Notes under the pieces: generated by a model
The model's input: the letters and a program-made list of their open reading frames with translations, nothing else
What the model was told of the DNA's origin: nothing
Databases searched by the model: none
Shown here: piece by piece, positions 2,220 to 35,729 of the stretch
How the letters are laid out: the number at the start of each line of letters is the position of its first letter
How positions within the stretch are numbered: the stretch's first letter is position 1
Source: a virus
Lineage: Duplodnaviria > Heunggongvirae > Uroviricota > Caudoviricetes
Virus record (IMG/VR): IMGVR_UViG_3300042889_001305
Length of the DNA: 64,000 nucleotides
Strand: one strand, 5' to 3'
Translations under genes and position numbers: made by a program

Positions 2220-3854
2220 TTATGGTTTGTAAAATACAAAAATGGGTTCAAACTTATACGCTTTACCATCGTGTTTAACTGCGTTTTTAATACCGGTTTT
2301 AGATGGGTCTAATCCTACCATTCGGGTCATTAACATCTTCAATCTACCTTTATACTCACAACCTAATCCGGTTAGAATATCAATAGAATCTTGTTCCAAT
2401 GCATAATAGGTATCCTTACCAATTTTAATATCGGCTATGTTCCATAGAATGTATCTATCATTTTTAAGATAATCATAAATGGTAGTTAGAGTAGGACGTA
2501 AGAAGTTTTGTCTCCAATCCTCATATTCACCATATGCTTTGAATGATTGATTCTCATCTTGTGAATATTGTTCTCTATTAAAATATGGGGGTGATGTGAA
2601 TGCTAAATCCAATTTACCTGCATACTTTTGAAACTTAGGATTATGTTGAATCAACTCCGAGCCATCTTGAAATAACTCATAAGTGTTTGATTGTTTTTGA
2701 ACCTCAAAGAACTTACCAAATGTTTCTGAGTAATCATCTACACAATTTTTGTTATAGAAATCAGCCACATACTCATAACGTGAAATACCTAATTCCGGTA
2801 TAAAGTTATCAGGGTTCGGGTCAGTTCCAATGTAATGGGTTTTCTTACGAGAACTCATTGCACCTAATATTCTGCCACCCCATCCACTTGATGAATCATA
2901 AATGTGTAGGGGGTCTGATTGTTCAATATGTGAAGTGTAATGTTCGTATAACCACTTAGCAGTTAGTGCAGGGAAATTCACTGCAGGTTGACCACAACTT
3001 AAACGAAACACTTGTAATATCTTTGGAAAGATACCAATTGTCTTATCATACCAACGAATCAGATAGAAAAACTTTTTAACCGTCCCATCTTTTAAAGTGG
3101 TAGATGGTTCAATCGTTTTAATATTAGATAATTGAGTATGTGATAACCATCCCTTATCCTTACATTCTTGTACTTGTTCAGCAGTTAGGTATAGATTACC
3201 AAATCCAATATATTGTTCATTGATAGTACCATAATTATCTAAGGTATCCTCCTTTACTTTCGCAAGAACAATACCTATGTTTTCGTACTTACCAACGAAC
3301 ACTTTACCTTCATGTACTTTTTGTATAAATTCAATTCCAGTTTCACCATCCCAAAATTCATTCTCATCTTTCTTATTCACAATAGAACGTGACCACGAAT
3401 ACATAGAATCTTTCTTAACCGCCCTCTTCATTATATGAACGAAGGTATCTTCTAATTTCGGGTCTGAGAAATGGTCATAAATAGATAATCCACCTTCTGC
3501 TGATTTACCGATTGATATTTTGGTTTTCAACATAGTTGGAAAGAATTGATTTACGGCTGATGCATCTTTATTGAAGTTTTGTAAAATACCCAATGAGTTA
3601 TCATCTCCCGTCAAATCTTTTTGAAGGAAATCACAATCATTTGTTTTTAACTTTTTGAATGAATCGATTATATCATTCTTATCTTTTCCGATAACAGGAG
3701 GAACACCATCGGTATCCCATTGTTTAGTTACTTCTATGCGTAGTAACTTTGCCCAACTAATAAACTCATCATCAGTCATTTCTAATAACCGATGATAAGT
3801 TGTATTGGATTGGAATTCAGAAAATTTAGACCTTTCGTAATAGTGTTTACTCAT
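2220..3854 (-). CDS. SAM-dependent amino-methyltransferase-like protein (SPPY motif), paralog P1. About 300 aa of unknown N-terminal domain.
   Basis: Motif I-like YDSSSGWGGRILGA precedes motif IV DLAFTSPPYFNREQY, the gamma-type order of N6A/N4C methyltransferases. The C-terminus is similar to the products of 11339-12559 and 12564-13796. Confidence 0.6.
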   Translation of the reverse strand: MSKHYYERSKFSEFQSNTTYHRLLEMTDDEFISWAKLLRIEVTKQWDTDGVPPVIGKDKNDIIDSFKKLKTNDCDFLQKDLTGDDNSLGILQNFNKDASAVNQFFPTMLKTKISIGKSAEGGLSIYDHFSDPKLEDTFVHIMKRAVKKDSMYSWSRSIVNKKDENEFWDGETGIEFIQKVHEGKVFVGKYENIGIVLAKVKEDTLDNYGTINEQYIGFGNLYLTAEQVQECKDKGWLSHTQLSNIKTIEPSTTLKDGTVKKFFYLIRWYDKTIGIFPKILQVFRLSCGQPAVNFPALTAKWLYEHYTSHIEQSDPLHIYDSSSGWGGRILGAMSSRKKTHYIGTDPNPDNFIPELGISRYEYVADFYNKNCVDDYSETFGKFFEVQKQSNTYELFQDGSELIQHNPKFQKYAGKLDLAFTSPPYFNREQYSQDENQSFKAYGEYEDWRQNFLRPTLTTIYDYLKNDRYILWNIADIKIGKDTYYALEQDSIDILTGLGCEYKGRLKMLMTRMVGLDPSKTGIKNAVKHDGKAYKFEPIFVFYKP

Positions 3855-3857
3855 ATC

Positions 3858-4571
3858 TTAGTTAGCGATTTCCACTAAATAGTAATCGGATGTATAGGCA
3901 TCTACTTCAAAATGAATGTGAGATAATCCTTGTGATGAAATTTCTAAGATAGCATCTTTAGCTTCTTTGTTTGCAACTAAGATTTCCTTTAAGTAAGTTG
4001 CTGAGAATGAGATTGGGTTAATACTACCTTCACACTCACAATCAACATCAATAGAAATTCTATTAGTGTTAATGTTTGAATGACCTAAGATAATTTGACA
4101 CTTACCATCTTTTGCAACAAATGTGAAATTGTTCTCATCTGTCAACGCCGATTTAGCACGGATGAACTTTGTAATAAAGTTTTCGTCTAACTTAATTTTA
4201 ATGTTGAAAGTTGGTAATTGTTTCAAATCAGGTACATTTGGGATAACCGAAAGGTCAGCCAACATATAATTGATTGAAGTTGAACCATCTTTAAACTTTA
4301 ATGATACCGCTTTACCATCTACATCAGAAATTTCAAAATCAATTGATTCTCCTAATACTGATAACATTTTAGTCAACTTAGATGTATCATATACACCAAA
4401 TGTTGTATCACTATAACCAAAATCTGTCATTGTTACTTTACCCAATACTGATTTGTCATCAGAAATGAATGCAGTTGTTAATGAGTTGTCTTTTGTTTCC
4501 CACTTTACAGATTCTACTAAACCTGCAAGATTGTACTTTTGTACGAAACGACCTAATTTACCTTTTTCCAT
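3858..4571 (-). CDS. Sliding clamp (T4 gp45-like), putative
   Basis: 237 aa (T4 gp45 is 228 aa). It lies immediately downstream of the DNA polymerase on the same strand, in the same operon region as the clamp loader. A host-type promoter sits upstream. I have no motif-level proof. Confidence 0.5.
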   Translation of the reverse strand: MEKGKLGRFVQKYNLAGLVESVKWETKDNSLTTAFISDDKSVLGKVTMTDFGYSDTTFGVYDTSKLTKMLSVLGESIDFEISDVDGKAVSLKFKDGSTSINYMLADLSVIPNVPDLKQLPTFNIKIKLDENFITKFIRAKSALTDENNFTFVAKDGKCQIILGHSNINTNRISIDVDCECEGSINPISFSATYLKEILVANKEAKDAILEISSQGLSHIHFEVDAYTSDYYLVEIAN

Positions 4572-4605
4572 GTTGTTTTTTTTTATTGTTTTAATTTATT
4601 GTAAG

Positions 4606-4638
4606 TGTAAAGATACGAATAATTTTTGAATTATCCAA
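4606..4638 (-). promoter_or_regulatory. Host-type promoter (TTTG-N20-TATCTTTAC) upstream of the sliding clamp gene
   Basis: The reverse complement reads TTTGGATAATTCAAAAATTATTCGTATCTTTAC. The spacer contains the palindrome ATAATT-N4-AATTAT. Confidence 0.5.
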
Positions 4639-4645
4639 ATTTATT

Positions 4646-7153
4646 TTAAAAAGAAAAGAATTTTTCTGCATTTTTTTGTTCACTCATTACTTCACCCCAA
4701 CCTAAGGCGTTATAGAAATCTTGTAACTTACCTTTTAATTCCGCTTCGAAGATTCGATTATGGTCGGTATAAGTTGTAATGAAATCAACTATTTCTTGTG
4801 GGTCATCATATCCTGTGAATCCCAATCCATCAATTCCTAATGGATTATTTTTAAGATAGACCCATTTGATTTTATCACCATCTTTCATTGGTGAATATTT
4901 GAATGGGGCTTTAAAGTGGGTTAAACAATCATTATATAGAATTGCTGCTTTAACGTGAGCAGGTGCACCTTTTTCCATATGGAATAATTGTCTTTTCTTT
5001 GGTGAATATTTTGAAAGGTTTTTAACTGCTGAGTTCTTTGCAATTTCATGTATCGGTCTACTTACCATACTCTTTTTAAACGCAAGAACAAATGCTGTTA
5101 ATTCCTCTTCAGTTTTACCTTTTAAGATATCTATTAGAACCGTCCCCATACAATCTTGAAACGCCTTAGGGAATGATGACCTTCTAACATCCAATCCCTT
5201 TACATCCAATCTATCTACGGCAACACCATTGTTTGAAATAATCCATTGTGCGTATCTCTTTTTTGCAATCCAAATACCTGCCCTAGCAACGTATTCCTTT
5301 TTAATTTCTAATCGGTGATTTTGAACATTGAAAAACTTATCTGAAAGAATATCATAAAACTTATTTAGATAATCTTGCATTTCACCTGCGATTCCATCTA
5401 CCAATACTGCAACTTCACTATCTGGCATTTCCTTCCAATTTGGATGACGGAAATCTAAAAGTGGTACTGCAGAAAAAAATACTGAATCCGTATCAATGTA
5501 AATGTTAGAATCCACATCAGTAGTACCTAACTCTTTATTGTATTTGATGTTTCCCATATTCGCAGAGTTCTTAATAACCGTCTGACCCGTAGTCGTAACT
5601 GCCTCCGCATTATCAACATCATAAAACCGAAAGGCAGGAAGACCAAGCACACCATAAAGAGAGTTAAGTAGAATTTTTTGAACCAACTGTCTTTTGCCGT
5701 AAAAGGCATATTTTTCTTTATTACCCTCCTGGCCGTACTTCTTTTCCAACTTTCTAAACTCCACCCTTTCATTGAACCAAATATCTAAAATTTCAGGAAT
5801 ACATCCTATTTTATCTTTACGATATAACACACCATTTGATGATATTGTTAAATCTGCCTCTTTAATATACTTTTCTAAATTATCACGTGAGATTTTATTA
5901 TCACCCATTTGATAGTAATCAACCTCCCTCTTCATATATTTCTGAACATCCCAATCTGCAATTTTAGCAACTTTGGTTTCAGGAGAAATGTTGATTGTCA
6001 TGATGATTGATGGATATAGAGATGTTAAATCCAAATCATATACCCAATCATACTTACCCACAATCGGGTCTTTTACATACGCACCGATAAACTTTTCTTG
6101 TTCATTATCTCTCAATGCCTGCATCATTTCCTTACGGTCTGATGGTTTATTCGGAGCAACTAATCCCTTACGTTTAAGGAAACATAACAATGCACCCTCT
6201 AAATACTTAGATGAATAAACGAAGTCCTCATAGGGAACGTGTCCTGCGTGGCAGATACCTCTACATAAATCAATGAATTGTAATTTCTTATCCAACTCCA
6301 CAACAATCTCAACATCGACTAAGTTATACTCAATGAACTTTTCAATGTCTTCATTAAATAAATCATCCAATGAACCTTGATATTCAATCTTACCCTTACC
6401 TAATTCAATCGTACCAATGGTATCTAATCGATAGTTAGGTAATTCGTTGTAGTTAAATTTCTTATAGAGTGATAGGTAATCCAAACAACTTACTCCTGCA
6501 AAGAACCATCTTTGACGATATGGAGAATAAAATGCTTGACCAATAGGTGATAACCTCTTTGCTTGAGATTCACCTAAGATGCGTTTCATTCGGTTGAATA
6601 GATACGGAATATCAAAATTATCAATGTTCCAACCAGTTAAAATATCCGGTGCAATACCTTCATAAAGTTCTAAGAACTTCATACACATATCCCTTTCATC
6701 TCTGAATGGTAGAATGATTGCCTTATCGGTTTTTCGTTCCACCATCTTACCTTTCTTATCCATAATCAATACCCAATATTGATTGGTGATATTATCTTGT
6801 AGACCAATAGCGGTAAGTTCGTTTTCAGCTTTTTCGGTATCAGGTAATCCACTTTCCATTTCCACCTCAATATCAAATGTCATTGTTACGATGGTATCTG
6901 ATGGAATATCGGAATCGGTATAAGTATCGACTAAAACACGTGTTGTTTCGGGTACATCCGATTCAAATAAATTTGGGTCATCCCCTTTGAATTTATAAAT
7001 CTTAGTTAATTTATCACCATAAATAGAACGGGCTTCACCTCTCTCTGCTCTTTCGTATGCGTATCTGGTGTATGGGAAGGTTCGGTAACCTAAATGAGAA
7101 TCCCAAAGGTGAATGAGATTTCGTTCCCTTTGATAATATATGTTTTTGTACAA
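4646..7153 (-). CDS. Family B DNA polymerase (T4 gp43-like)
   Basis: DLTSLYPSII (motif A, DxxSLYPS) and YIDTDSVFF (motif C, YGDTDS) are present. It also has exonuclease-like N-terminal blocks. 835 aa. The apparent start codon is TTG (7151-7153) with no in-frame ATG nearby. Confidence 0.9.
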   Translation of the reverse strand: MYKNIYYQRERNLIHLWDSHLGYRTFPYTRYAYERAERGEARSIYGDKLTKIYKFKGDDPNLFESDVPETTRVLVDTYTDSDIPSDTIVTMTFDIEVEMESGLPDTEKAENELTAIGLQDNITNQYWVLIMDKKGKMVERKTDKAIILPFRDERDMCMKFLELYEGIAPDILTGWNIDNFDIPYLFNRMKRILGESQAKRLSPIGQAFYSPYRQRWFFAGVSCLDYLSLYKKFNYNELPNYRLDTIGTIELGKGKIEYQGSLDDLFNEDIEKFIEYNLVDVEIVVELDKKLQFIDLCRGICHAGHVPYEDFVYSSKYLEGALLCFLKRKGLVAPNKPSDRKEMMQALRDNEQEKFIGAYVKDPIVGKYDWVYDLDLTSLYPSIIMTINISPETKVAKIADWDVQKYMKREVDYYQMGDNKISRDNLEKYIKEADLTISSNGVLYRKDKIGCIPEILDIWFNERVEFRKLEKKYGQEGNKEKYAFYGKRQLVQKILLNSLYGVLGLPAFRFYDVDNAEAVTTTGQTVIKNSANMGNIKYNKELGTTDVDSNIYIDTDSVFFSAVPLLDFRHPNWKEMPDSEVAVLVDGIAGEMQDYLNKFYDILSDKFFNVQNHRLEIKKEYVARAGIWIAKKRYAQWIISNNGVAVDRLDVKGLDVRRSSFPKAFQDCMGTVLIDILKGKTEEELTAFVLAFKKSMVSRPIHEIAKNSAVKNLSKYSPKKRQLFHMEKGAPAHVKAAILYNDCLTHFKAPFKYSPMKDGDKIKWVYLKNNPLGIDGLGFTGYDDPQEIVDFITTYTDHNRIFEAELKGKLQDFYNALGWGEVMSEQKNAEKFFSF

Positions 7154-7180: not shown

Positions 7181-7546
7181 TTATTTTATTGATTCATTAA
7201 ATCTTCTTCTCTCTTCCATTGATTTCCAATTCACACCATCAATCAAATCATCAATGGTATCAAATGATGGAGAATTTATCAGACCACCACCCATTAACAT
7301 AACAATCTTACCAGATGAGGATTTTTTAATACTACCGGTAGATATTACTTGCCAAAAGTTTCTTTTACCTTTATATTCATCAGGAACGATAAAATCAATA
7401 ATATTACCTTTACCTTTGATTATATTTAACTTTTCAGTCTTACTAATTTTTTCCAAAGATTTATTAGCAGGGATTCCTTCAGCTCCTTTAAATTGTTTTC
7501 CGCCGAATTCGGTAATTAGATTCTTTAACTTTATCATATTGGACAT
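7181..7546 (-). CDS. Hypothetical protein
   Basis: The track ORF starts at a TTG (7594). I prefer the in-frame ATG at 7544-7546 (MSNMIKLKN...), which is preceded by AAGGA. No recognisable motif. Confidence 0.4.
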   Translation of the reverse strand: MSNMIKLKNLITEFGGKQFKGAEGIPANKSLEKISKTEKLNIIKGKGNIIDFIVPDEYKGKRNFWQVISTGSIKKSSSGKIVMLMGGGLINSPSFDTIDDLIDGVNWKSMEERRRFNESIK

Positions 7547-7613
7547 CCTTGTTATTTGTTTATAAATATAAAATAAATTGGATTTAACACCCAATTTTAC
7601 ATTTTTGTTTTAA

Positions 7614-7856
7614 TTATAGTTTTTTTAATGGAACTAATTTACCATCAACTATTTTATGAGGTATCCCATCTTTAATTACAAATGGTGGTTTTTTATTTAT
7701 ATCAATTCCTTGATTAAGTAACTCTTGTTTTATTTGTTTTTTACGCAGTTCTTCCTCTCTACGATTGAACCATTTTTCAGCTTTTAAACTACCTTCTTTT
7801 GGTAAAGATATCTTATGTGGTTTAAATGAACTCTTCTTTTTTATATCACCTGCCAT
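7614..7856 (-). CDS. Hypothetical basic protein (80 aa)
   Basis: ATG start. Lys/Arg-rich. It sits in the operon between the PLP enzyme and the polymerase. Confidence 0.4.
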   Translation of the reverse strand: MAGDIKKKSSFKPHKISLPKEGSLKAEKWFNRREEELRKKQIKQELLNQGIDINKKPPFVIKDGIPHKIVDGKLVPLKKL

Positions 7857-7868
7857 TATTTTATTTTT

Positions 7869-8708
7869 TTAAAATTTGTAAATTCCACCAATATTCCAGA
7901 ATAGAATAGTTCCTTCGATTTGGTCTATGTTTTCTTCTAACCACTTCCATTGCTTTACATCCCAAAATTGGTTGCAAGGGAATGGGGTTTCGTAACCATC
8001 TAATCTATTCTCAAATAGATACTCTGATTTTCGTATATTTAGGGGAATTGGAATCCCACTCTTTTTAAGTGTTTTATTGATTGAACTAACCGATGATACA
8101 CATGTTGTCCAAATCTTCTTTTTAACTTGTGGAAAAAACTCTTTAAGTTCCTCTCTATAATATCCTCTTGCTAATCCTGCAAGAGTTACACCACTACCAG
8201 ATGATACTACTAAATTATCAAAATGGGCAAGGGGTTGAATTCTATCTGCAAGATAATCTTTATAGAAATCGTGGTCAAAAGCGTAAGGTAACATTTGCCA
8301 TCCCCTTTCTCTTGCATCTTTCTTTAACGAATTATACATAATCTGCATCATATTAGGTCTAATTGGATATAGGTTTGTTTTAGGATGCATTTCCTTAATC
8401 ATTCTCAAATATTCCTGTGATATCTTTTTAGAATCAGGGTGTGCTGCATAAAATTCAATTCCCAATTCCTCACATATTGCACTCAATGCCCATGCTGTCC
8501 AACTACCATCTACGGAAAGGTGAACCAGTGGTTTTGATTTATCAATATATTTTTTAACCAATTCAAATAATGCTGCTAATTTACCCCACGGCGGTAATAT
8601 CATACCATCGCCCATCAAGTCATCCCTCTTTACCCATACTTCTCTACCCTTAATGTGATAAAGTTCTAATGGGGTATCTTCGGTTAATCCTTTTAGTTTT
8701 AAATCCAT
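7869..8708 (-). CDS. PLP-dependent enzyme, fold type II (ACC deaminase / D-cysteine desulfhydrase family), shortened
   Basis: TPLELYHIKGREVWVKRDDLMGDGMILPPWGKLAALFEL parallels E. coli DcyD TPLEYL..GREIFIKRDD......GNKLRKLEFL, placing the PLP lysine in WGK. The glycine loop VVSSGSGVTLAGLA parallels VVASGSAGTHAGLA. It is 279 aa against about 330 for the family. Confidence 0.7.
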   Translation of the reverse strand: MDLKLKGLTEDTPLELYHIKGREVWVKRDDLMGDGMILPPWGKLAALFELVKKYIDKSKPLVHLSVDGSWTAWALSAICEELGIEFYAAHPDSKKISQEYLRMIKEMHPKTNLYPIRPNMMQIMYNSLKKDARERGWQMLPYAFDHDFYKDYLADRIQPLAHFDNLVVSSGSGVTLAGLARGYYREELKEFFPQVKKKIWTTCVSSVSSINKTLKKSGIPIPLNIRKSEYLFENRLDGYETPFPCNQFWDVKQWKWLEENIDQIEGTILFWNIGGIYKF

Positions 8709-10204
8709 TGATATATTCCTCCTGAGTTTGACGTTAATTCTCCTTTCATTTTTCTATGAGAGAACCCGTGTATTTTTTCAAAGTTATCACCAATGACATG
8801 AATCATATTTTTTCTTTTCTTAAAATTAATAGATTCATCTTTTAAAATGATTTCTTCGATGTATTGTTTAAAATTTGTTCCTTTTTGAAATGCTCTTTTT
8901 TCCTGGTCTAAAATCTCATCAGGCAGTTTACCTCTGAATGCATTAGCAAGTGGTAATTTCCATTGACCTCCTTTAGATAAGTATTCATCGGTTAAATTAG
9001 TAGTATAGTTTAAAAATTCGGTATCAAAGAATGGGCATCTTAATTCGATTGTTCCATAATTCATAAAGATAGTATTACCTCTTAATAGGTTACCATAGTA
9101 TTGTTTTTCAAATAACTTTTTACGAACATCACTCCAATCTGGTTTCTTACTGAACATACGGAATGTACCATACGAACCATAGGATTCATCAGAACCCTCA
9201 CCACTAAATGCTACCTTAATACCATCTCTTGCCATTTGTTCTGCAATAAAGGATTGTAGGATACCCACTTCCATTTGAACGGTCGATGGATATTCGATTA
9301 CTCTAATTGAATCTAAAAATCTTTGTTTAATTATTTCTTCATCTTTAGGAACAAATACTTCAACTAACTCCACTCCTAAATACTCCGCACATACTCTTGC
9401 CTTTTGTAAATCCTTTGAGGTTTCATCAAATGCAATTGTGTATGCTTTTAGGTTTGGTATACGTTGTGATAGTAGGTAGGTAATGATTGCAGAATCAATC
9501 CCACCACTTAGTGATGTAGCAATTGGTACATCTGATAATAATCTTTTATCTACTGCAGTTTCTAATAACTTAAATGTAGTTTCACCAACTTCTTCATGTG
9601 ATGCCGGTATAGTAGGTTCGTTTGAGAATTGAAAATAATAATCTTTATGAACTACAATCGTATCAGTATTTAAATCAATTTCTACCAATGAATTCTTAGG
9701 TACAAACTTAATATCTGAACTCTTTACCTGTGTTGTAATGGATTTCAATTCACTAGCGATGATATAGTTGTTTGTATTGTGAATATAAAGGGGCAATTTA
9801 CCCACCCAGTCCCTCGATAGTATCAACTTATCATTATCGTATATAATGAATGAGAACATACCCTCTAATCTCTTTAATTCACCTTCCTTGTAAAGATATA
9901 GAATAATTTCTGAATCTGAATTAGATTTAAAGTGATACCCCCTTCCTTCGTATTCTTTACGCAATTGAGGATAGTTCCAAATCTCACCATTGACTACCAA
10001 TTCAACTCCATCCCATTCCATAGGTTGATTACCCAATGGTGAAGTATCGTTGATTGATAATCGGTTATGTCCTAAGATAATATGTTTATCGTTATATTGG
10101 AATTCTTTAATACCACGATTATCTCTACCACGATGCTCAATTGCTTCGAGCATTACATTCACATCATCTCTTTTATATCCAATCGTTGCTACAATTCCAC
10201 ACAT
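8699..10204 (-). CDS. Asparagine synthetase (glutamine-hydrolysing)-like amidotransferase
   Basis: The N-terminal MCGI carries the Cys2 nucleophile of class II glutamine amidotransferases. The PP-loop SLSGGIDSAIITYL is an ATP pyrophosphatase motif. 501 aa. Its stop overlaps the start of the PLP enzyme gene. Confidence 0.85.
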   Translation of the reverse strand: MCGIVATIGYKRDDVNVMLEAIEHRGRDNRGIKEFQYNDKHIILGHNRLSINDTSPLGNQPMEWDGVELVVNGEIWNYPQLRKEYEGRGYHFKSNSDSEIILYLYKEGELKRLEGMFSFIIYDNDKLILSRDWVGKLPLYIHNTNNYIIASELKSITTQVKSSDIKFVPKNSLVEIDLNTDTIVVHKDYYFQFSNEPTIPASHEEVGETTFKLLETAVDKRLLSDVPIATSLSGGIDSAIITYLLSQRIPNLKAYTIAFDETSKDLQKARVCAEYLGVELVEVFVPKDEEIIKQRFLDSIRVIEYPSTVQMEVGILQSFIAEQMARDGIKVAFSGEGSDESYGSYGTFRMFSKKPDWSDVRKKLFEKQYYGNLLRGNTIFMNYGTIELRCPFFDTEFLNYTTNLTDEYLSKGGQWKLPLANAFRGKLPDEILDQEKRAFQKGTNFKQYIEEIILKDESINFKKRKNMIHVIGDNFEKIHGFSHRKMKGELTSNSGGIYQWI

Positions 10205-10209
10205 ATTAT

Positions 10210-10632
10210 TTATTTTATATCAGCTTCTACGTCTTTTAAATTCATTTCTATCATTTTCAACTCATCATTTAACCAATCATATTTTCCAAATGCTATATCC
10301 TTTATCTTTGCATTGATTTCCCAACGTTGAATAATATCTCCTACTACATTTAATTCTAATAATTGAAACGAAATTGTATTAGTTTGTTTAGATTTATTTT
10401 CTGCTAATCCCTTGCAAATAATTGAAGCAATTGGAATTTCTGAAGTTTCATACATCTCAATTGTTAAATCACCCCAATTTACCCACCCATCATCATAAAC
10501 ACAAACTACTTTTAATTCACTCATTTTATGGACCGCATATGTTGGGATAACAAATGGGGAATTAAATTCAATTAAAAATCTATTTACTTTTTGTGGTTCA
10601 AATGCTACGAACTCTTGTTGTTCTTTTTTCAT
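10210..10632 (-). CDS. Hypothetical protein (140 aa)
   Basis: ATG start that overlaps the stop of the TS-like gene (translational coupling). No recognisable motif. Confidence 0.45.
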   Translation of the reverse strand: MKKEQQEFVAFEPQKVNRFLIEFNSPFVIPTYAVHKMSELKVVCVYDDGWVNWGDLTIEMYETSEIPIASIICKGLAENKSKQTNTISFQLLELNVVGDIIQRWEINAKIKDIAFGKYDWLNDELKMIEMNLKDVEADIK

Positions 10633-10633
10633 A

Positions 10634-11332
10634 TTATTTATTTAATACTTCTAATAACTTATGAGTCTTTTTCGTTTCATCATTCATTTTACCGATATGA
10701 CAAGAACAAGCTAAAACTGAAACTTTCCCTAACTCCATACCACTTTCTCTCGCTAAGAACTTACCCATCTCAACCAATGCAGTGTAATCTGCGTAACCTG
10801 ATTTGGATACTCTATTTGAACGAATGATTGATGTTAGGTAGATTTTACCACCACGAGGTTTAATATCAATCCCTAACATACAAGGTTGTGAGTATGGATT
10901 CCTAGCATCTCTGCTCGGGTCAAAGATAATCAATTCACATCTCTTAACTGCTTTACCAGTTTTAAGGATTTTAATTACATTTTCTACTTGATTAAATGTT
11001 CCTTGCCATGCAATCATTCTACCCCAATATGAATCATGCCAGTGGTCTTTAATGAATTTGTATTCCAATCCCTCTTCGGCTACAAAGAATGGGTTATCCG
11101 ATACCTTTGGTTGTGGTTCTAAGAAGGTTACGGTCTTTGCGTAATCAATTCTATCATCTCCCATAATTTCTCTAAAATGTGGGTCGAACCATTCATCAGA
11201 TTTAAATTCGGTGATTTCTGTCATTACGTTTAACTCTTCGGTTAAATCGCCTACCTTTACGCCATTGGCAATAAGGTGTTTAGATACCTTTACCCATGCA
11301 TCTCCCGGAGATGTTGCTTCTATAACTGTCAT
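10634..11332 (-). CDS. Thymidylate synthase-family enzyme (dNMP 5-hydroxymethylase/methylase-like), short form
   Basis: SQPCMLGIDIK carries the Pro-Cys nucleophile. KIYLTSIIRSNRVSKSGYADYTALVEM parallels TS [27 protein letters not shown], and VSVLACSCHI parallels the TS C-terminal block. It is 232 aa, shorter than ThyA and closer in size to phage dCMP/dUMP hydroxymethylases. Confidence 0.75.
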   Translation of the reverse strand: MTVIEATSPGDAWVKVSKHLIANGVKVGDLTEELNVMTEITEFKSDEWFDPHFREIMGDDRIDYAKTVTFLEPQPKVSDNPFFVAEEGLEYKFIKDHWHDSYWGRMIAWQGTFNQVENVIKILKTGKAVKRCELIIFDPSRDARNPYSQPCMLGIDIKPRGGKIYLTSIIRSNRVSKSGYADYTALVEMGKFLARESGMELGKVSVLACSCHIGKMNDETKKTHKLLEVLNK

Positions 11333-11338
11333 ATTATT

Positions 11339-12559
11339 TTATTTTATTTTTTTCCAAATCCAAATGGGTTCACCAAATGCATTATTTTTATTGAGTTCTG
11401 TTTTTTCTTTGAGTTCTTCTGCAAAATATTCAGATTTAGCATTTCCTGCACCGCCGGAATTAAACCTTTTTGTCATTTCCATTCCAATACAACCCATATA
11501 TTCTAATCCCTCTGATTTAATAAAGTCATTCATAGCATTTACAATATCAACATACCCCTTATCTGGTGCTGAAAATACATCTGCAATATTAACTGCTAAT
11601 AACCCACCCTTCTTTAAGGTAGGGATTATTTTTTTAATTGTTTTATGTAGGAAATTGGTATTCCAATCATCTATCTTTTTATAGCGTAAATAACTTTGAG
11701 TATCATGTGTGGAATACTTTTCAGTATTGAAGTATGGAGGTGAAGTGAAGATTGTATCAAAAAAGTTTTCATATTTGGAATAATCCACATCTTCTGCCGG
11801 TAACTTTATCAGTTCCACAGTTTTAGGATTCTCAAAAAACGTTTTGTGTTTCTGATAAAATTCTATTTGGTTTTCATAATTTGGGTGATTATCTAAATTA
11901 GGGTCTATACCAACATAATGTTTACCCGTTTCACTTGCAAAGAATCCACATAATCTATCTCCCCAACCTGCTGAAAAATCTAATATATTCTCACTTTGGA
12001 ATCTATCATAAAATGCTTTAGCAATTACAGGTTTGAATTGTGATGCCACATACTTTCGTAATGTAGTTGCCATCTTTAGTGTTTCCTTATTTACATCAGT
12101 TAGGACTTGTTCTAATGTGAAGAATGCCCGAACTATGGTTTTTATACCATTAACTGTCTGCCATGTCTTCCAACCTGATGGTGTTCTTGACCAATCTACC
12201 TTCCATCGATTTTCTATATGGAATGGGTTGGATGCGTTATTACCAACATTCGTTCTTTTAAAGTAATAATTACTACTATCAAATGTAAGTGGATATGCAG
12301 ATTCCCTTTCATTACGCGGAAACCATTCTCCCTCCACTAAAATATCCGGCCACCAAGTACCCTTTAACTTTTTATATGCATCAATCGTTTCTTGTTCTGT
12401 AATAATAGGAATAGGTGGTGGATAAGTATGTAATACTTCTGATAATGTTTCTACTATCTCTTCCTTTTCAAATGTATTTAGTATATGTTTCCACTCCTCC
12501 TTATCAATATTGATATAGGGGGTCATTCCATAAAACTTTTTGAAATATTCTTTTATCAT
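11339..12559 (-). CDS. SAM-dependent amino-methyltransferase-like protein (SPPY motif), paralog P2
   Basis: LDFSAGWGDRLCGFFA (motif I) and FTSPPYFNTEKY (motif IV). The N-terminus MIKEYFKKFYGMTPY matches the P3 N-terminus MYIEYFDKFYGMTPY. I therefore take the ATG at 12557-12559 rather than the track's TTG at 12667. AGGAAAA lies 12 nt upstream. Confidence 0.6.
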   Translation of the reverse strand: MIKEYFKKFYGMTPYINIDKEEWKHILNTFEKEEIVETLSEVLHTYPPPIPIITEQETIDAYKKLKGTWWPDILVEGEWFPRNERESAYPLTFDSSNYYFKRTNVGNNASNPFHIENRWKVDWSRTPSGWKTWQTVNGIKTIVRAFFTLEQVLTDVNKETLKMATTLRKYVASQFKPVIAKAFYDRFQSENILDFSAGWGDRLCGFFASETGKHYVGIDPNLDNHPNYENQIEFYQKHKTFFENPKTVELIKLPAEDVDYSKYENFFDTIFTSPPYFNTEKYSTHDTQSYLRYKKIDDWNTNFLHKTIKKIIPTLKKGGLLAVNIADVFSAPDKGYVDIVNAMNDFIKSEGLEYMGCIGMEMTKRFNSGGAGNAKSEYFAEELKEKTELNKNNAFGEPIWIWKKIK

Positions 12560-12563
12560 TAAA

Positions 12564-13796
12564 TTACATTTTCCTAAATACCCATACCGGTTCGCAGAAA
12601 GTTTTACCGGCATTTTCAATTGCCTTTTGCTTTTCTTCTTCGGAATATCGGTCTTCATCTCCCTCAATCATTGCACCTGCTCCAATTGAACCTGGCCTCT
12701 TAGCCATTTCCATACCTAAACATCCTTGATACTCTGCACCTTCTAATGTGGAAATAAAATCGTTCATTGGGTTAGTGATTTCCTGTTGACCTTTGCCATC
12801 ACCCTTTGAGGATGCATATACATCTGCGATATTAACTGCTAGATACCCACCCTTACGGATAGTAGGCCATACTTTTTCAATCGTTGCATGTAAGAATAAT
12901 TTATTCCATGCATCAATATTTTTATATCGAATCCAACTTTGAGTATCATCATATGAATATCTCTCTACGTTGAAATATGGTGGCGAACTGAATACAATAT
13001 CAAAGTAATCGGTATACTCACTATAATCCATATCCTCTGCGGGAGAACAATGAAAGGTTGCCCTCTTATCAGTTTCAAAAAAACCATTATTCTTTTTATA
13101 GAATTCGGCTTGTTTTTCGTATATTGGATGATTTTCTTTACGCGGGTCAATACCTACATAATGCTCACCATATTCTGATGCGAAAAATCCACATAATCTA
13201 TCACCCCATCCAGCAGAAATATCTAATACATTCTTTGCTTGAACGAAATCATAAAGTGCCTTTGCTACGTTTGGTTTGAACTGAGAACAAATATACTTTC
13301 TTAAAGATAGACAAGTTCTTAGGGTATTTTTACTAACCTCATCAAATTTTAGGGTATACATTCCACCGATTAGTGAAAACATAAAATCAGGGTTATTCCA
13401 AGTACGGAATGGGCCAGGCGATACTGTCCCATCTACGCTCCATCTATTTGCTTGTTGAAAATGATTCGATGCCCCATTACCAGTATTCAGCCTTCTTACA
13501 TATTGTTGTTTACCTTGAAATCCTAATGGATAACGGGTTTCAGATGCCTTACGAGGAAACCACTCACCTTCGGTTAGAAGTTCGTGATAACGAGTTCCTT
13601 TTAATTTAAGATACTCTTTTCTTGCATCCTCTTCAGAAATATCTGCATATGGTAATTCATATGTCATACATACTTTGGCAAGAGATTCCTTAACGTCTTC
13701 TCTTTGGTATGTTTTTTTAATGTGAGACCACTCTTCCTTACCGATATAAAGATATGGTGTCATACCATAAAATTTATCAAAATACTCTATATACAT
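12564..13796 (-). CDS. SAM-dependent amino-methyltransferase-like protein (SPPY motif), paralog P3
   Basis: LDISAGWGDRLCGFFA and FSSPPYFNVERY. It sits in tandem with P2 and is collinear with it over the whole length. ATG start, with a host-type promoter 36 nt upstream. Confidence 0.6.
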   Translation of the reverse strand: MYIEYFDKFYGMTPYLYIGKEEWSHIKKTYQREDVKESLAKVCMTYELPYADISEEDARKEYLKLKGTRYHELLTEGEWFPRKASETRYPLGFQGKQQYVRRLNTGNGASNHFQQANRWSVDGTVSPGPFRTWNNPDFMFSLIGGMYTLKFDEVSKNTLRTCLSLRKYICSQFKPNVAKALYDFVQAKNVLDISAGWGDRLCGFFASEYGEHYVGIDPRKENHPIYEKQAEFYKKNNGFFETDKRATFHCSPAEDMDYSEYTDYFDIVFSSPPYFNVERYSYDDTQSWIRYKNIDAWNKLFLHATIEKVWPTIRKGGYLAVNIADVYASSKGDGKGQQEITNPMNDFISTLEGAEYQGCLGMEMAKRPGSIGAGAMIEGDEDRYSEEEKQKAIENAGKTFCEPVWVFRKM

Positions 13797-13831
13797 AACC
13801 TTTTATTATTTTATTCAGTTTATATTTTATC

Positions 13832-13863
13832 AAAGATACGAAAAATATTCCGTATTTCCAAAT
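13832..13863 (-). promoter_or_regulatory. Bacteroidetes sigma-A-type promoter (minus strand TTTG-N20-TATCTTTG) heading the modification operon
   Basis: The reverse complement reads TTTGGAAATACGGAATATTTTTCGTATCTTTG, which is -33 TTTG, a 20 nt spacer and -7 TAnnTTTG. The spacer contains the inverted repeat ATACG-N10-CGTAT. Confidence 0.6.
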
Positions 13864-17513: not shown

Positions 17514-18620
17514 TTACTCAAAAAATTGATTTATTTTTTCTTTCACTTCCGGTTTCACTTCTACACGGTTTCCTTTTATTGGTTTGCTAACCGGTCTGTT
17601 TTTTTCATATTCAATTCTTGTTTTCGAAATTTCAAAGTATTCTTTTTCTCTTTCAATACCAATAAAATCAAAACCACCTCTAATTGCTGCTTTACCAGTA
17701 CTTCCACTTCCCATAAACGGGTCTAATATCGTTCCATCGTTTTTAGTAACCAAACGAATAAGGTATAGCATCAAATCCGTTGGTTTGACAGTCGGGTGTG
17801 TGTTATTACTTCCTTCGTTTCTATCACTCTTTGATGTTTTAGGACAGTAGAAAAATCTACTAGCACCACCAACATCTCCCAATCCACCTAAATTTGCAGC
17901 TTTAACATCTAATGCATAGTTTCCATATTTACCGTTTTTGCCCAATTCTCCCATTGATTTATCCCCACTACCTCCTGGTGATTTTGATACTCCACTTTGT
18001 TCATCCAATAACCTACCTGCTTCTTCATCAAAGATTACATTTGCTGGAAATCTGCCTATTGTATCTGCTATGTTAGCGTTACTACTATCATAACCATCAT
18101 CTAATCCTGTCAATGAGGGTCTACCATTTGCTTTTGATTTATAATCACCATTAAGTTCAATCCTGCAACCATCTATGTTTATCCCACCAGTTCCCCATTC
18201 TAAAACATTCTCTGCTACTGTGCTTTCACTCAAAGGTTTTCTTGCCATTACAATAGGTTCATGTGCCGGTTTAAGAGCAGTTCCCCAACCTTGCCATTCT
18301 TCTAACTTATGTCCTATGTTATGTGATTTAGGAAACCCTGAACCATATATCCACATAATCTGGTCTCTAATCTCAAACCCTGCATCTTCAATTCTTACAG
18401 CCATTCTGTGATAAGTTCTACTACCCGCGAATGAAAGGATATGACCTCCTGGTTTTAGAACACGAAGGCATTCTTCCCATATCTGCTGTGATGGAACATC
18501 ATAATCCCAGTGTTTGCCCATAAATGCAAGTCCATATGGCGGGTCAGTAACAATACTATCCACCGAATTATCATCTAATTCTTTAAGTTTATCTAAACAA
18601 TCTCCTAGTAATAATTTCAT
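17514..18620 (-). CDS. DNA methyltransferase (N6-adenine or N4-cytosine, DPPY type)
   Basis: SIVTDPPYGLAF (motif IV) near the N-terminus, and DPFMGSGSTGKAA (motif I) near the C-terminus. This is the beta-class order of the N6_N4_Mtase family. 368 aa. Confidence 0.85.
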   Translation of the reverse strand: MKLLLGDCLDKLKELDDNSVDSIVTDPPYGLAFMGKHWDYDVPSQQIWEECLRVLKPGGHILSFAGSRTYHRMAVRIEDAGFEIRDQIMWIYGSGFPKSHNIGHKLEEWQGWGTALKPAHEPIVMARKPLSESTVAENVLEWGTGGINIDGCRIELNGDYKSKANGRPSLTGLDDGYDSSNANIADTIGRFPANVIFDEEAGRLLDEQSGVSKSPGGSGDKSMGELGKNGKYGNYALDVKAANLGGLGDVGGASRFFYCPKTSKSDRNEGSNNTHPTVKPTDLMLYLIRLVTKNDGTILDPFMGSGSTGKAAIRGGFDFIGIEREKEYFEISKTRIEYEKNRPVSKPIKGNRVEVKPEVKEKINQFFE

Positions 18621-25088: not shown

Positions 25089-25559
25089 TTATTTTGCCCA
25101 TTTACCATTAGAAACTATTTGTGCAATAATTCCATATACTGATAGGTCTTGAAAGGTATCTTCTATTGATTCCCCAACTGAATCCTCTTTACTTAGGACT
25201 ACCAATTGTTTTAATCTTTGGATTTTATCGTTCATTCTAAACCATAATCCCGTTAGTGATAATTTCTTATCCTCAGCAGTTTCTAATTTAGTACCAACCG
25301 AAATATTGTTTGGGCCGTAGTTTGATTGTTTTAGACAAAACAATTCGTATTGAGTAAACATAAGTCGTTTAAACTCATCCGTCATTTCTGGATATTCTTT
25401 TTCGACCTGTTCTATGATTTTGGGATTATCATATTTGATAAATGCAACCTCATCATCTTTAGTCTCCAATTTAGGAGCGATGTTCATTTGAAGTTGATTC
25501 TTCACCTGTTGGCCTATAATCTTAGGGCCACTTGATTGTGGGGGTGTGTTTTTTGCCAT
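25089..25559 (-). CDS. Hypothetical protein (156 aa)
   Basis: ATG start. A host-type promoter lies 28 nt upstream. Confidence 0.45.
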   Translation of the reverse strand: MAKNTPPQSSGPKIIGQQVKNQLQMNIAPKLETKDDEVAFIKYDNPKIIEQVEKEYPEMTDEFKRLMFTQYELFCLKQSNYGPNNISVGTKLETAEDKKLSLTGLWFRMNDKIQRLKQLVVLSKEDSVGESIEDTFQDLSVYGIIAQIVSNGKWAK

Positions 25560-29093: not shown

Positions 29094-29759
29094 TTATTTT
29101 TGTTTGAATTTAAACCCTGTTAGTTTTTCAATATCCGAAACCTCTACTTTATTATTATTTATACCATCTGGTTTAGATAAGTCGTTCTCAAATAAAAACG
29201 CAAACCATTCTTTATTTCTAACTACATAAAAAACTTTCCAACATTGTGTCGGTACGGAAATCTTTCCTATCTTTTTTAACTCACCCACATTTCCTGCCCA
29301 CACATGAACGGAATCTGATATTAGAGCAACATCTCTTGTTAGGGTTTCTAAGGATTTCCAATCTCCCGCATTTAATCTATGGTATTGTGCTACCATATTT
29401 GAATAATAGAAACTTTCATCTTGTATCGCCGGAGTTTGACATTGATTTGATTTTGCCGGCATTAGATGACCTCTATCAAATCCACTTCCTACATAATCGT
29501 TTCCAATATTGGTTTCGTTTGGTAAAAGGGGGTCGGGTTTAAAATTATCTTTACGTGGAATTGGATTTGGACAACCAATTTTTGCTTTGGTTTCCCACCA
29601 TTCTACTAAGACAGGATATCTTTTTGATTTACTAAAGTGTGAGGTGTAATTTGTGTGTTTTAAAACCACTACATCTTGTGCGAATGTTACAATTGTAACG
29701 AATGATAGCATCAACGTCATTAACGTAATCCCCACTATTGTTCCTAAATTTTTTCTCAT
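29094..29759 (-). CDS. Exported non-specific DNA/RNA endonuclease (beta-beta-alpha-Me, Serratia/EndoG family)
   Basis: N-terminal signal peptide MRKNLGTIVGITLMTLMLSFVTIVTFAQD. It carries the DRGH motif as GSGFDRGHLMPA. 221 aa. Confidence 0.75.
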   Translation of the reverse strand: MRKNLGTIVGITLMTLMLSFVTIVTFAQDVVVLKHTNYTSHFSKSKRYPVLVEWWETKAKIGCPNPIPRKDNFKPDPLLPNETNIGNDYVGSGFDRGHLMPAKSNQCQTPAIQDESFYYSNMVAQYHRLNAGDWKSLETLTRDVALISDSVHVWAGNVGELKKIGKISVPTQCWKVFYVVRNKEWFAFLFENDLSKPDGINNNKVEVSDIEKLTGFKFKQK

Positions 29760-34997: not shown

Positions 34998-35729
34998 TTA
35001 TATTTGTAGGTATATATACTCTGAAAACTCCTTATTTCCATTGGGTGAAAGATGCCAATCTCCATTATTTAATTCAGAATCACAAGTCCACCCTTTATTT
35101 ATGGTTAATTCTCGTAAATTTGTTAAAGCCGGTTCAATATATTTCCTAATATTATCACCCATTAATTTATCCCATGATAATAATAATGTTGATATATTAT
35201 TTTTTTTATCATCAATACCTTTTAAAGTATAGTATGTTGATAAAATAGAATTTCGTTGTAAAAATATTTCATTTGATAATTTTTTATTGAATATATTACA
35301 AAAGGTAGTTAACTCCGCATCGTAATATGGATATTCTTCATTAAAGTTTCTATGAGGTGAAAACGGAACAATTGAATTCAGGTCATTTTTTTTTAAAATT
35401 GAATGCTGAAATGCTATTCTATTCCAATAGGTTAATTGAAAAATTATTAGTGAATCATCATATATTTCACGAGGTAATCTATCTCCATATAGTTCTATTT
35501 GCTTATCATTATTAGGATGCGGAAATTCTAATTTAGAATTTATACAATTTAAATAATATAAATTTTCAATGTTTGAACTACCATTTATTGAATAGTTGTA
35601 TACATTTTTAGCTGATATATTTAACTTATCCGCTAACAAATCTACATATGATTTGCAATTAGGGTCAATAGAATTGGTATTTAACGAATGAGAACACCCA
35701 AAAATATATAAATGTTTGTATTTATTCAC
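34998..35729 (-). CDS. Hypothetical protein, weakly SGNH/GDSL-hydrolase-like
   Basis: The N-terminal LYIFGCSHSLNT resembles GDSL block I with Asp replaced by Cys. GTG start. Low confidence. Confidence 0.35.
   Translation of the reverse strand: MNKYKHLYIFGCSHSLNTNSIDPNCKSYVDLLADKLNISAKNVYNYSINGSSNIENLYYLNCINSKLEFPHPNNDKQIELYGDRLPREIYDDSLIIFQLTYWNRIAFQHSILKKNDLNSIVPFSPHRNFNEEYPYYDAELTTFCNIFNKKLSNEIFLQRNSILSTYYTLKGIDDKKNNISTLLLSWDKLMGDNIRKYIEPALTNLRELTINKGWTCDSELNNGDWHLSPNGNKEFSEYIYLQI

Follow-up and report, generated by a model that had tools for sequence, protein, structure and literature searches.

A conserved phage gene cassette predicted to hypermodify a pyrimidine, most likely cytosine, in phage DNA

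Why would a phage encode a thymidylate synthase (TS)-like enzyme, an amide-forming ligase, a pyridoxal 5'-phosphate (PLP) enzyme and several methyltransferase-like proteins side by side, close to its family-B DNA polymerase? This is the question raised by positions 7181-13863 of the 64,000-nt stretch of DNA that we analysed (the window), which comes from an uncultured aquatic phage, IMG/VR virus record IMGVR_UViG_3300042889_001305. A first-pass annotation, made without database searches, had proposed that the region is an eight-gene operon for hypermodification of DNA bases. Our analysis supports this interpretation as a prediction, in view of a cytosine-type Asp in the TS-like enzyme, a PLP enzyme of the phage M6 gp52 family, a ligase from the radiation to which CmoY belongs, and a linkage of these genes that holds down to 34% identity of the TS-like protein. 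We put at roughly 0.6 the probability that this is a phage-only cassette whose products hypermodify a pyrimidine of the phage's own DNA, with C5 of cytosine as the most likely site. The genes concerned are the following.

12564-13796, minus strand: MT1, an SPPY methyltransferase-fold protein of 410 amino acids (aa), with motif I LDISAGWGDR, motif IV FSSPPYF and an N-terminal extension of about 170 aa
11339-12559, minus strand: MT2, an SPPY paralog of MT1, 406 aa counted from the ATG at 12559
10634-11332, minus strand: TS-like enzyme, 232 aa, recognised by Pfam, PHROG and PDB sequence searches and by an AlphaFold2 (AF2) model searched with Foldseek
8699-10204, minus strand: AsnB-like ATP-dependent amide synthetase, 501 aa, with GATase_7 and Asn_synthase domains
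7869-8708, minus strand: PLP enzyme of fold-type II, 279 aa, matching phrog_7093 at 1e-23, a homolog of M6 gp52
2220-3854, minus strand: MT3, 544 aa, a third SPPY paralog, just after the clamp gene

The grouping of these genes recurs in many other loci. When IMG/VR was scanned with the AsnB-like protein and, separately, with a profile of the TS-like protein, about 110 distinct related loci were obtained, which were then compared by tblastn and clustering of open reading frames (ORFs); the contiguity counts cover the 90 loci with enough flanking sequence, some contigs being represented twice. In 89 of the 90 the ligase gene has the TS-like gene as its neighbour on one side and the PLP gene on the other, which bears out the co-occurrence in other phages that the first-pass annotation had wished to see checked, and an SPPY protein lies inside the examined stretch in 83 of the 90, with varying type, position and copy number (0-4). 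This arrangement is far beyond chance. The conserved entity is a cassette of four families (TS-like, ligase, PLP and SPPY) and not the eight-gene string: of that string the members of the four families are conserved and three small ORFs (u140, u80 and u137) are not, and MT3, the most constant and best-conserved SPPY partner of the cassette, had been overlooked.

The linkage persists among divergent relatives. In a divergent low-GC group the TS-like proteins are 43-48% identical and the cassette lies away from the polymerase gene (polB), and in loci L123 and L124, on contigs of 220-277 kb with a different backbone and a GC content of 42-53%, the four families are kept close together at a TS identity of 34-39%. 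Around this core the accessory genes change. Four MT1-type paralogs wrap the cassette in L118; a GNAT acetyltransferase gene stands beside the ligase gene in L124 (12619-13257; Pfam 1e-8), where L123 has a 220-aa ORF without annotation (9381-10043); and L109 (IMGVR_UViG_3300009506_000122, 4486-6891) encodes an 801-aa fusion of a radical S-adenosylmethionine (SAM) domain (CxxxCxxC, 2e-16) with an SPPY N6_N4_Mtase domain (5e-13), which adjoins TS-like and PP-loop genes in a locus that lacks the PLP gene. Such variation among loci is the modular pattern typical of phage hypermodification clusters. Cassette relatives sit on IMG/VR contigs of up to 375 kb, part of them from Tara Oceans data, and no cultured phage in GenBank was found to carry the cassette, which, judged from sequence searches, looks confined to phages. 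L123 and L124 also encode proteins of about 330-357 aa with an HExxH motif and no family match (L123:10088-11068 and L124:10684-11757).

What, then, could the TS-like enzyme contribute? The call of a short enzyme with the TS fold holds: Pfam recognises it at E 6e-4, a PHROG family named 'thymidylate synthase' at 1.5e-9, and its AF2 model (predicted local distance difference test, pLDDT, 88) retrieves only TS-family structures among the top Foldseek matches, including AfhB (9iqu/9iqc, 1.3e-12) and MilA (4e-12). The same two enzymes were matched among PDB sequences with HMMER (MilA 5b6d and phage HY126 AfhB 9iqc), the active-site segment aligning without a gap. In the numbering of E. coli ThyA, which we use for all TS positions, the catalytic Cys146 corresponds to Cys151 and the phosphate-binding Arg166/Ser167 to Arg171/Ser172, all three invariant in the family; the phosphate-binding Lys130/Arg131 (126/127), as well as Tyr94 and His207 of ThyA, are also kept. 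The fold together with the equivalents of Cys146 and Arg166/Ser167 places the protein in the TS superfamily. It is not a canonical thymidylate synthase: positions 177, 169 and 143 are Asp182, Arg174 and Ser148, the C-terminal folate lid is absent, the chain ending 20 residues past the conserved His as in AfhB, and the Pfam score is 19.5 against a cutoff of 24.3. The best NCBIfam match is a short archaeal TS family, far under its cutoff.

The residue at position 177 bears on the substrate, since Asp there marks cytosine enzymes and an Asn-to-Asp replacement switches the substrate from deoxyuridine monophosphate (dUMP) to deoxycytidine monophosphate (dCMP) (PMC13326640, PMC8670742); all family members examined have Asp. 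The other two diagnostic positions are unusual. Position 143 is Asp or Glu in hydroxymethylases and hydroxylases and Leu in methylating TS, and position 169 is Asp in folate users and Asn, diagnostically, in flavin-dependent 5-hydroxy-dCMP synthases (PMC13326640); here they are Ser and Arg, the latter being replaced by Ala in the L118 group. In a T4-type dCMP hydroxymethylase Asp177 goes with an acidic residue at 143 and with Asp169; here it goes with Ser at 143 and Arg or Ala at 169, so that the hydroxymethylase signature is matched in part. The signature of the 5-hydroxy-dCMP synthases (AfhB, RB69 gp48), which is Asn169 with Asp177 and Glu143, is lacking, though AfhB is the top structural match. 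With Asp177, atypical residues at 143 and 169 and no lid, it can be read as a C5 enzyme for a cytosine nucleotide whose co-substrate is unreadable from known signatures, and a cytosine mononucleotide is, on these residues, a quite likely substrate. T4 gp42, HY126 AfhB, RB69 gp48 and Streptomyces MilA share its fold, catalytic Cys, Arg166/Ser167 and Asp177, and its 232 aa approach the 234-238 aa of AfhB-like enzymes; identity to them is, however, at most 20%, the H-x-Y motif has Gly in place of its Tyr, and no glycosyltransferase gene adjoins.

No relative of the TS-like protein was found in 185,579 bacterial and archaeal species, one genome each, by a search with two short peptide patterns that divergent members could escape, and searches with the TS-like and MT proteins among cultured phages returned remote matches only. 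In locus L032 (9353-11485) the TS-like and AsnB-like proteins are encoded in frame by a single 710-aa ORF, in which the AsnB-like part has lost some 16 residues at its N-terminus, the catalytic Cys2 among them. True fusion, gene decay or faulty assembly may account for this ORF, which was left out of the evidence.

The ligase is a glutamine amidotransferase with a PP-loop ATPase domain, as had been read from the sequence (GATase_7 2e-30; Asn_synthase 2e-42; E. coli AsnB 1ct9, 5e-39). By its alignment with 1ct9 and by Pfam it has all the hallmarks of the class II (N-terminal nucleophile, Ntn) glutamine amidotransferases of the asparagine synthetase family, namely the Cys2 nucleophile, the R-N-G-E-D glutaminase residues (equivalents of Arg49/Asn74/Gly75/Glu76/Asp98), an SGGIDS PP-loop and an SGEGSDE motif. 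It has the two-domain architecture and every glutaminase and PP-loop catalytic motif of E. coli AsnB, but is about 50 aa shorter, stands in another genomic context and occupies a slot that can be filled by CmoY-like ligases instead. The AsnB segment Thr322-Thr323-x-Arg325, which we take to be important for the formation of beta-aspartyl-AMP, reads V-Q-x-E in the window ligase and A-Q-x-E in gp124 of Streptomyces phage TurkishDelight, its closest homolog in a cultured phage (32% identity over 90% of the length; synthetase domain 36%, E 4e-48).

The neighbours of gp124 are a dcm-type C5 methyltransferase gene on one side and, on the other, a gene whose best NCBIfam match is CmoA, with two ParB genes upstream. 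TurkishDelight gp123-125 is an example of the glutaminase-bearing class of the S-B43-type system, and for ligases of this class Yang et al. predicted amidation of 5-carboxymethylcytosine in DNA with glutamine-derived ammonia, SpCmoY itself being a demonstrated DNA 5-carboxymethylcytosine:glycine amide ligase (PMC12783734). In ten of our loci the ligase slot holds a 280-321-aa SGGxDS PP-loop protein without a glutaminase domain; three of five such variants scanned exceed the Pfam Asn_synthase cutoff, and in pairwise comparison with SpCmoY those of L123 and L124 match over their full length at 1e-24 to 1e-25, that of L106 at 1e-10 and that of L118 at 8e-9. The synthetase domain of the window ligase matches SpCmoY weakly (E 3e-6). 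Whichever variant occupies the slot, it comes from the family of DNA-carboxylate amide ligases; amidation of a carboxylate borne on a base is the best-supported step of the pathway, and we consider it rather probable that this ligase carries out an ATP-dependent carboxylate amidation with glutamine-derived ammonia.

The PLP enzyme likewise points to DNA. The short fold-type-II enzyme resembling 1-aminocyclopropane-1-carboxylate (ACC) deaminase that had been proposed is there, with a weak PALP match, an alignment to 1j0a at E 0.008 and Lys42 aligned with the Schiff-base Lys. Its scores with the metabolic families stay far under the cutoffs (21.8 for PALP, where 35 is required, and 26 for ACC_deam_rel, where 289 is required). 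The alignment with M6 gp52 (YP_001294560) is end to end, covering 279 and 278 aa at 25% identity (E 1e-23), and pairs Lys42 with the predicted PLP Lys36. The family motif is PFPCNQFWDVKQWKWL...FWNIG, and with M6 gp52 the protein shares a C-terminal PFPCN...W.WL...FWN(I/L)G motif (here PFPCN.F.D.K.WKWL...FWNIG) that ordinary fold-II enzymes lack. A tblastn search with the PLP protein gave 64 phage records, nearly all from Yuavirus-type Pseudomonas and Bordetella phages, M6 and YuA among them. In DNA, M6 gp52 turns C-alpha-glycinyl-thymine into 5-aminoethyl-uracil by PLP-dependent decarboxylation, and ViI gp226 likewise decarboxylates O-seryl-thymine (Lee et al., PMC8989533). The full-length homology and the aligned PLP lysine make the window protein a member of the gp52/gp226 family, with decarboxylation as a predicted activity. 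Neither a PLP desulfhydrase (5e-6, compared with 1e-23 for gp52) nor base thiolation by such an enzyme together with a PP-loop protein was retained as a candidate, the PP-loop enzyme being of the asparagine synthetase type and usually carrying a glutaminase domain.

The gp52 homology raises the possibility that the target base is thymine or uracil, the locus being a kinase-free variant of the thymidine pathways of M6 and ViI: the only characterised members of the gp52 family act on thymidine derivatives, and the TS homologs of those phages make 5-hydroxymethyl-dUMP. Against the Asp177 present in all members examined, the ungapped alignment with the cytosine-specific MilA and AfhB and the switch from dUMP to dCMP brought about by Asn-to-Asp, we regard this as highly improbable. 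Next to the PLP gene, 23 divergent low-GC loci (e.g. L053:12306-13064) encode an HD-like protein of about 255 aa (HHDLGK ... HQAD) directly after it, for which there is no Pfam or NCBIfam match and no homolog in the window. In L106 a gene for a 540-aa protein that by eye is GroEL-like (9462-11084) stands between the PLP and MT1-type genes, and the MT gene is followed by one for a 442-aa protein with ParB-like DGGHR and C-terminal HNH-like motifs, also seen by eye (12413-13741).

The fourth family consists of the SPPY proteins. MT1 and MT2 are indeed tandem paralogs with a methyltransferase fold, 51% identical and each with the SPPY motif; for MT2 the ATG at 12559 is the most probable start, while the longest ORF would use a TTG at 12667. 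Motif I (LD.SAGWGDR), an acidic motif II (HY.G.DP) and motif IV (F[ST]SPPYF) are intact, in the order I then IV (gamma-type) as opposed to the beta order of the Pfam N6_N4_Mtase family, for which MT2, MT3 and MT1 score 26.8, 26.0 and 17.1 bits at a gathering cutoff of 26.7. MT1 matches phrog_12517 at 2e-15. No significant match of the SPPY family to PDB sequences was obtained even with a profile, and MT3 alone matched just a designed repeat protein. CmoA was rejected as an identity for these proteins, which have an amino-group-binding motif IV and do not match CmoA. The cassettes of L118, L123 and L124 are flanked by full-length orthologs of MT1 (31-37% identity), and each relative has between 0 and 4 MT1/MT2-type copies in variable positions. 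MT3 has a distinct and highly conserved N-terminal part of about 300 aa, without detectable relatives outside its family, which comprises 2181 protein clusters in public data, the best 120 being 78-99% identical; its counterparts in the divergent low-GC group, about 72% identical (70% in L053), immediately precede the TS-like gene. Its AF2 model is poor (pLDDT 58, from an alignment of 22 sequences that are 77-88% identical). The window also encodes a canonical N6_N4 DNA methyltransferase (17514-18620, minus strand; Pfam 1.4e-36), its gene being flanked by those for ribonucleotide reductase and for the DnaB-like helicase, which brings its amino-methyltransferase-like proteins to four.

How might these four families work together? 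It can be hypothesized that the TS-like enzyme attacks C6 of dCMP through Cys151, with Asp182 reading the N3/N4 edge of cytosine and the Lys and Arg residues holding the phosphate, and that it would thereby install, before replication, a handle at C5 for which the residues make hydroxymethyl or hydroxyl most likely. The modified nucleotide would be phosphorylated and then incorporated by the phage polymerase. On DNA, the handle would grow into a side chain for which the substrates of the gp52 and CmoY relatives suggest a carboxylate and, probably, an alpha-amino group, MT3, MT1 and MT2 being the likely sequence-context-specific, base-flipping, SAM-binding DNA enzymes of this stage. The PLP enzyme would bind the amino-acid-like side chain, either decarboxylating it as its relatives do or forming it by beta-replacement, and the AsnB-type enzyme would adenylate the side-chain carboxylate and then, with glutamine-derived ammonia, make a carboxamide of it. 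The CmoY-like ligase of variant phages presumably couples another amine, and L124 would additionally acetylate an amine, so that the end product would be a cytosine with a neutral amide or a cationic amine. As for the attachment itself, a Pfam scan of 49 of the 50 minus-strand ORFs of at least 90 aa in the window gave no match to the kinase or aGPT-Pplase families, whose absence the first-pass annotation had rightly remarked and which would be expected beside a gp52-type enzyme, and none to CmoA or C5-methyltransferase families. With kinase and aGPT-Pplase as well as CmoA and CmoX not found, the SPPY proteins, the PLP enzyme or both are left as the attachment machinery.

Several findings weigh against this pathway. 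The TS-like enzyme fits none of the published diagnostic signatures (Ser at 143, Arg or Ala at 169), and neither a deoxynucleoside monophosphate kinase nor a dCTPase was recognised in the 64-kb window. The ligase exceeds the cutoff of the asparagine-synthase equivalog TIGR01536 (282.6 against 267.1 bits), while staying below that of PRK09431 (252 against 499). Were the cassette a set of unlinked auxiliary metabolic genes, namely a divergent TS, a real asparagine synthetase, an enzyme like threonine dehydratase or ACC deaminase and orphan methyltransferases, this score would be explained, as would the database names 'thymidylate synthase' and 'threonine dehydratase' and the proximity of ribonucleotide reductase and thioredoxin genes. 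Yet a metabolic TS should not have Asp in place of Asn at 177, lack Asp169 and lack the folate lid, the PLP protein is far under the metabolic cutoffs while matching gp52 from end to end, the AsnB-like slot swaps with glutaminase-less CmoY-like ligases, and the synteny is strict over very divergent phages. These points make unlinked metabolic genes very unlikely, and the context and the interchange of ligases argue against a genuine asparagine synthetase B.

A second difficulty lies within the pathway. A decarboxylase and an amidotransferase compete for the same carboxylate, so that, in the simple case of one alpha-amino acid, at least one of the assigned roles is incomplete; the scheme in which an amino acid is attached and then both decarboxylated and amidated fails because both enzymes need the one carboxylate. 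Three hypotheses would remove the conflict. The PLP enzyme might use beta-replacement, the chemistry ancestral to fold-II enzymes, to attach a 2-amino-2-carboxyethyl group taken from serine, with the ligase amidating this group thereafter; the product of the first step would then be the cytosine analogue of the O-seryl intermediate of ViI. Alternatively, the SPPY proteins might transfer a carboxyl-bearing group, 3-amino-3-carboxypropyl (acp) or carboxymethyl, from SAM or carboxy-SAM (Cx-SAM), the ligase amidating it and the PLP enzyme acting elsewhere on the side chain or at other sites. Finally, two alternative end products might be made side by side. The most far-reaching version, in which the SPPY proteins are not methyltransferases and either transfer acp from SAM to DNA or assist the PLP enzyme in a TrpB-like beta-replacement, the TS-fold enzyme works without folate, and the AsnB-type enzyme then amidates the product to a diphthamide-like amino-acid carboxamide on cytosine, is in our judgement quite unlikely. 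In diphthamide biosynthesis, Dph2 transfers acp from SAM, Dph5 is a methyltransferase and Dph6 a PP-loop amidation enzyme. The likeness, which is an analogy only, lies in the combination of SAM enzymes with ATP-dependent PP-loop amidation of a side-chain carboxylate, to which L109 adds a radical SAM domain; the substrate there is a protein histidine, however, and no TS-like or PLP component takes part.

The third difficulty concerns the SPPY proteins, a family that is also present in phages without the cassette, for instance as a Vibrio phage gene annotated as N4-cytosine methylase; they could be ordinary methyltransferases. In that case the pathway would consist of the TS-like, ligase and PLP trio alone, and the SPPY proteins would be orphan N4-cytosine or N6-adenine methyltransferases forming an anti-restriction island, each guarding a different motif, which is compatible with hypermodification of cytosine by the trio. 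Their motif IV and SAM motif I are intact and their Pfam and PHROG matches are DNA methyltransferases; homologs without the cassette occur in Vibrio, Bacteroides and Staphylococcus phages (the neighbourhoods in Bacteroides phage SJC03 and a Vibrio phage contain none of it); copy number and position vary; and the avoidance of short motifs described below shows that restriction pressure is real. But an SPPY partner is found in every cassette lineage, down to 34% TS identity, L109 has the SPPY-radical SAM fusion beside the TS-like and ligase genes and L118 four tandem paralogs around the cassette, and with the SPPY proteins taken out nothing in the cassette would attach a side chain for the ligase and the PLP enzyme. 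We hold the restriction of the pathway to the trio to be a serious possibility, to be entertained tentatively, with the odds on the side of SPPY participation.

The last point against the proposed pathway is that the window is depleted of short palindromes. GATC is wholly absent (0 found, 251 expected, z -19.5), GGAACC/GGTTCC likewise (0 against 37), and GCGC (2/19), CATG (72/213), CTAG (52/146) and GTAC (97/213) are found less often than expected. Among related loci of the L001-L125 set, 74 of 117 have no GATC, and over 1.68 Mb the count is 845 against 6801 expected, most occurrences falling in a few lineages; higher-GC carriers of the cassette retain GATC and lack GCGC. No such avoidance was seen in short loci of the hypermodified phages M6 and S-B43, or of TurkishDelight, for which modification is predicted only. 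Because a bulky group on every cytosine should make avoidance unnecessary, this argues against a shield that covers every cytosine of the genome. Only a part of the sites, or only certain motifs, may be modified, or the modification may serve another purpose, such as discrimination of self from host DNA for the phage's own nuclease; the loss of GATC may stem from a phage GATC nuclease, DpnI-type enzymes, Dam/MutH-type nicking or host restriction. The avoidance lowers our confidence in a T4-style global replacement and not in the cassette as a base-modification pathway.

The same avoidance hints at unshielded DNA and so bears on whether virion DNA is the target at all. The cassette might act instead on the free (deoxy)cytidine pool, giving a nucleoside-antibiotic-like or signalling product as with MilA or BcmA, or on host or phage RNA. 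MilA, one of the two best structural matches of the TS-like enzyme, is a natural-product CMP hydroxymethylase, the mononucleotide-binding residues are conserved, and AsnB-type and fold-II PLP enzymes usually work on small molecules. We nevertheless think such a target unlikely, considering that DNA is the substrate of the closest relatives of known activity, both for the PLP enzyme and for the ligase-only variants, that partners resembling DNA methyltransferases are always present, that the cassette is restricted to phages and set in a replication and nucleotide module, and that the window has no tRNA genes.

How does a cytosine-directed cassette of this kind relate to what is known? The combination of TS-like, asparagine-synthetase-like, gp52-like and SPPY proteins was not found in a full-text literature search, in keeping with the earlier remark that it is not a described pathway. 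It has in common with the CmoA/CmoX/CmoY pathway of S-B43, which leads from 5-carboxymethylcytosine to the glycine amide (PMC12783734), an amide-forming enzyme of the asparagine synthetase family beside a C5 enzyme for cytosine with a Cys nucleophile. It differs from that pathway in lacking the Cx-SAM synthase CmoA and the C5-methyltransferase-fold CmoX, its own C5 enzyme having the TS fold and probably acting before replication on dCMP, and in adding the gp52-type PLP and SPPY families. With the pathways of M6 (5-aminoethyl-dU) and ViI (5-aminoethoxymethyl-dU) it shares a C5 handle made by a TS homolog, tailoring on DNA by a PLP enzyme of the gp52/gp226 family, paralogous DNA-level enzymes and modular tailoring, here a GNAT in L124 and radical SAM in L109 (PMC5889632, PMC8989533). 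It differs from them in the absence from the 64 kb of a 5-hydroxymethyl-dU DNA kinase and of aGPT-Pplase, in its cytosine-type residue and in the extra adenylating amidotransferase. Unexplained 'amidoligase and glutaminotransferase' genes were noted by Lee et al. only in contigs that contain kinase and Pplase (PMC8989533). The cassette belongs to neither the M6/ViI nor the S-B43 pathway and combines parts of both logics.

Phages use hypermodified bases as a main counter-defence against CRISPR and restriction, and enzymes for labelling DNA have been drawn from this source. To our knowledge, all characterised amino-acid-type hypermodifications of pyrimidines start from hydroxymethyl-uracil and need a DNA kinase and an aGPT-Pplase transferase, and the only carboxylate-handle pathway known to us uses Cx-SAM and a C5-methyltransferase. 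A cassette without the known attachment enzymes and with an unusual cytosine-type TS-fold enzyme should therefore yield a novel modified cytosine through at least one novel attachment reaction; that the attachment is entirely new chemistry has a modest chance. If acp transfer or beta-replacement were true, amino acids would be attached to DNA by a new route that dispenses with kinase and aGPT-Pplase. The cassette is present on about 110 IMG/VR contigs, a number of which measure 170-375 kb. Viral DNA from aquatic habitats could thus often be modified in this way, with a possible bias in methods based on sequencing or restriction. The cassette is abundant and modular and can be put to a direct test by heterologous expression, and the complete absence of GATC poses a separate, testable question as to what these phages evade.

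The genome around the cassette fits a replication setting. The window has 33% GC, and its real-looking ORFs of at least 90 aa all lie on the minus strand. They include a T4-like replication set (gp32-like, RecA/UvsX-like, DnaB-like, family-B polymerase, clamp and 5'-3' exonuclease), ribonucleotide reductase, and tail sheath, tube, baseplate and tail fibres; the replication set together with the sheath, tube and baseplate genes indicates a large myovirus. Megablast of the region against GenBank phages gave no near-identical phage, and the IMG/VR scan returned one contig, 3300033996_001274, that essentially matches the window. The closest cultured relative of the polymerase is that of Microcystis phage Mel-JY01 (51% identity), T4-like cyanophages otherwise being at about 33%. 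Scans for tRNA genes and Rfam families gave none in the window. Upstream of the region, on the same strand, are genes for a helix-turn-helix (HTH) protein, thioredoxin, ribonucleotide reductase, the N6_N4 methyltransferase and the DnaB-like helicase. A 156-aa DUF1599 protein ('Nucleotide modification associated domain 1'; 25089-25559, minus strand; Pfam E 5e-6, phrog_1485 5e-14) could, from its family matches, be a nucleotide-pool enzyme tied to the pathway.

Three genes elsewhere in the window had been cited as fitting a phage with modified DNA. The family calls of a PhyH dioxygenase (35722-36498) and of an exported non-specific nuclease (29094-29759, Endonuclease_NS) are confirmed; the GT-B glycosyltransferase at 51033-52031 (minus strand) found no match in Pfam, PHROG or PDB sequence searches. 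That ORF sits between tail-fibre genes with Peptidase_S74 chaperone domains, and its FEAVDKGKLPI segment is GT4-like by eye only.

The eight minus-strand ORFs themselves lie where the first-pass annotation had put them, with spacings of -10 to +27 nt, and run into polB and then the clamp gene. The features of this stretch outside the conserved cassette are as follows.

13805-13833, minus strand: promoter-like pair TTGATA-17-AATAAT, in the 66-nt gap upstream of MT1
10210-10632, minus strand: u140, 140 aa, between the TS-like and ligase genes, without a Pfam, PHROG or NCBIfam match
7614-7856, minus strand: u80, a small ORF without a Pfam or PHROG family match
7181-7594, minus strand: u137, a small ORF without a Pfam or PHROG family match
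4646-7153, minus strand: family-B DNA polymerase (polB), genomic context
3858-4571, minus strand: clamp, downstream of polB

The claim that one host-type promoter heads the operon could not be supported, the pair being indistinguishable from a chance match: hexamer matches are rarer in the region than in shuffled sequence (44 found, 62 expected), with a consensus that may not be that of the host, and scans of the region for promoters and terminators gave nothing informative. As regards the small ORFs, u140 is confined to the two nearest relatives, L001 and L003, the TS-like and ligase genes abutting in all other loci; homologs of u80 and u137 are absent by tblastn from all 64 related loci compared, and in close relatives the PLP gene directly abuts polB. 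Not being conserved, the three are strain-specific inserts unrelated to the pathway, and u140, which interrupts the core of the cassette, is probably no part of it. The TS/ligase, PLP/polB and polB/clamp junctions are hot spots of insertion (7181-7856 and 10210-10632 in the window; also L004, L005, L010, L025 and L048), some relatives carrying ORFs of about 545 aa there and L010 having a gap of up to 5.7 kb between polB and the clamp gene.

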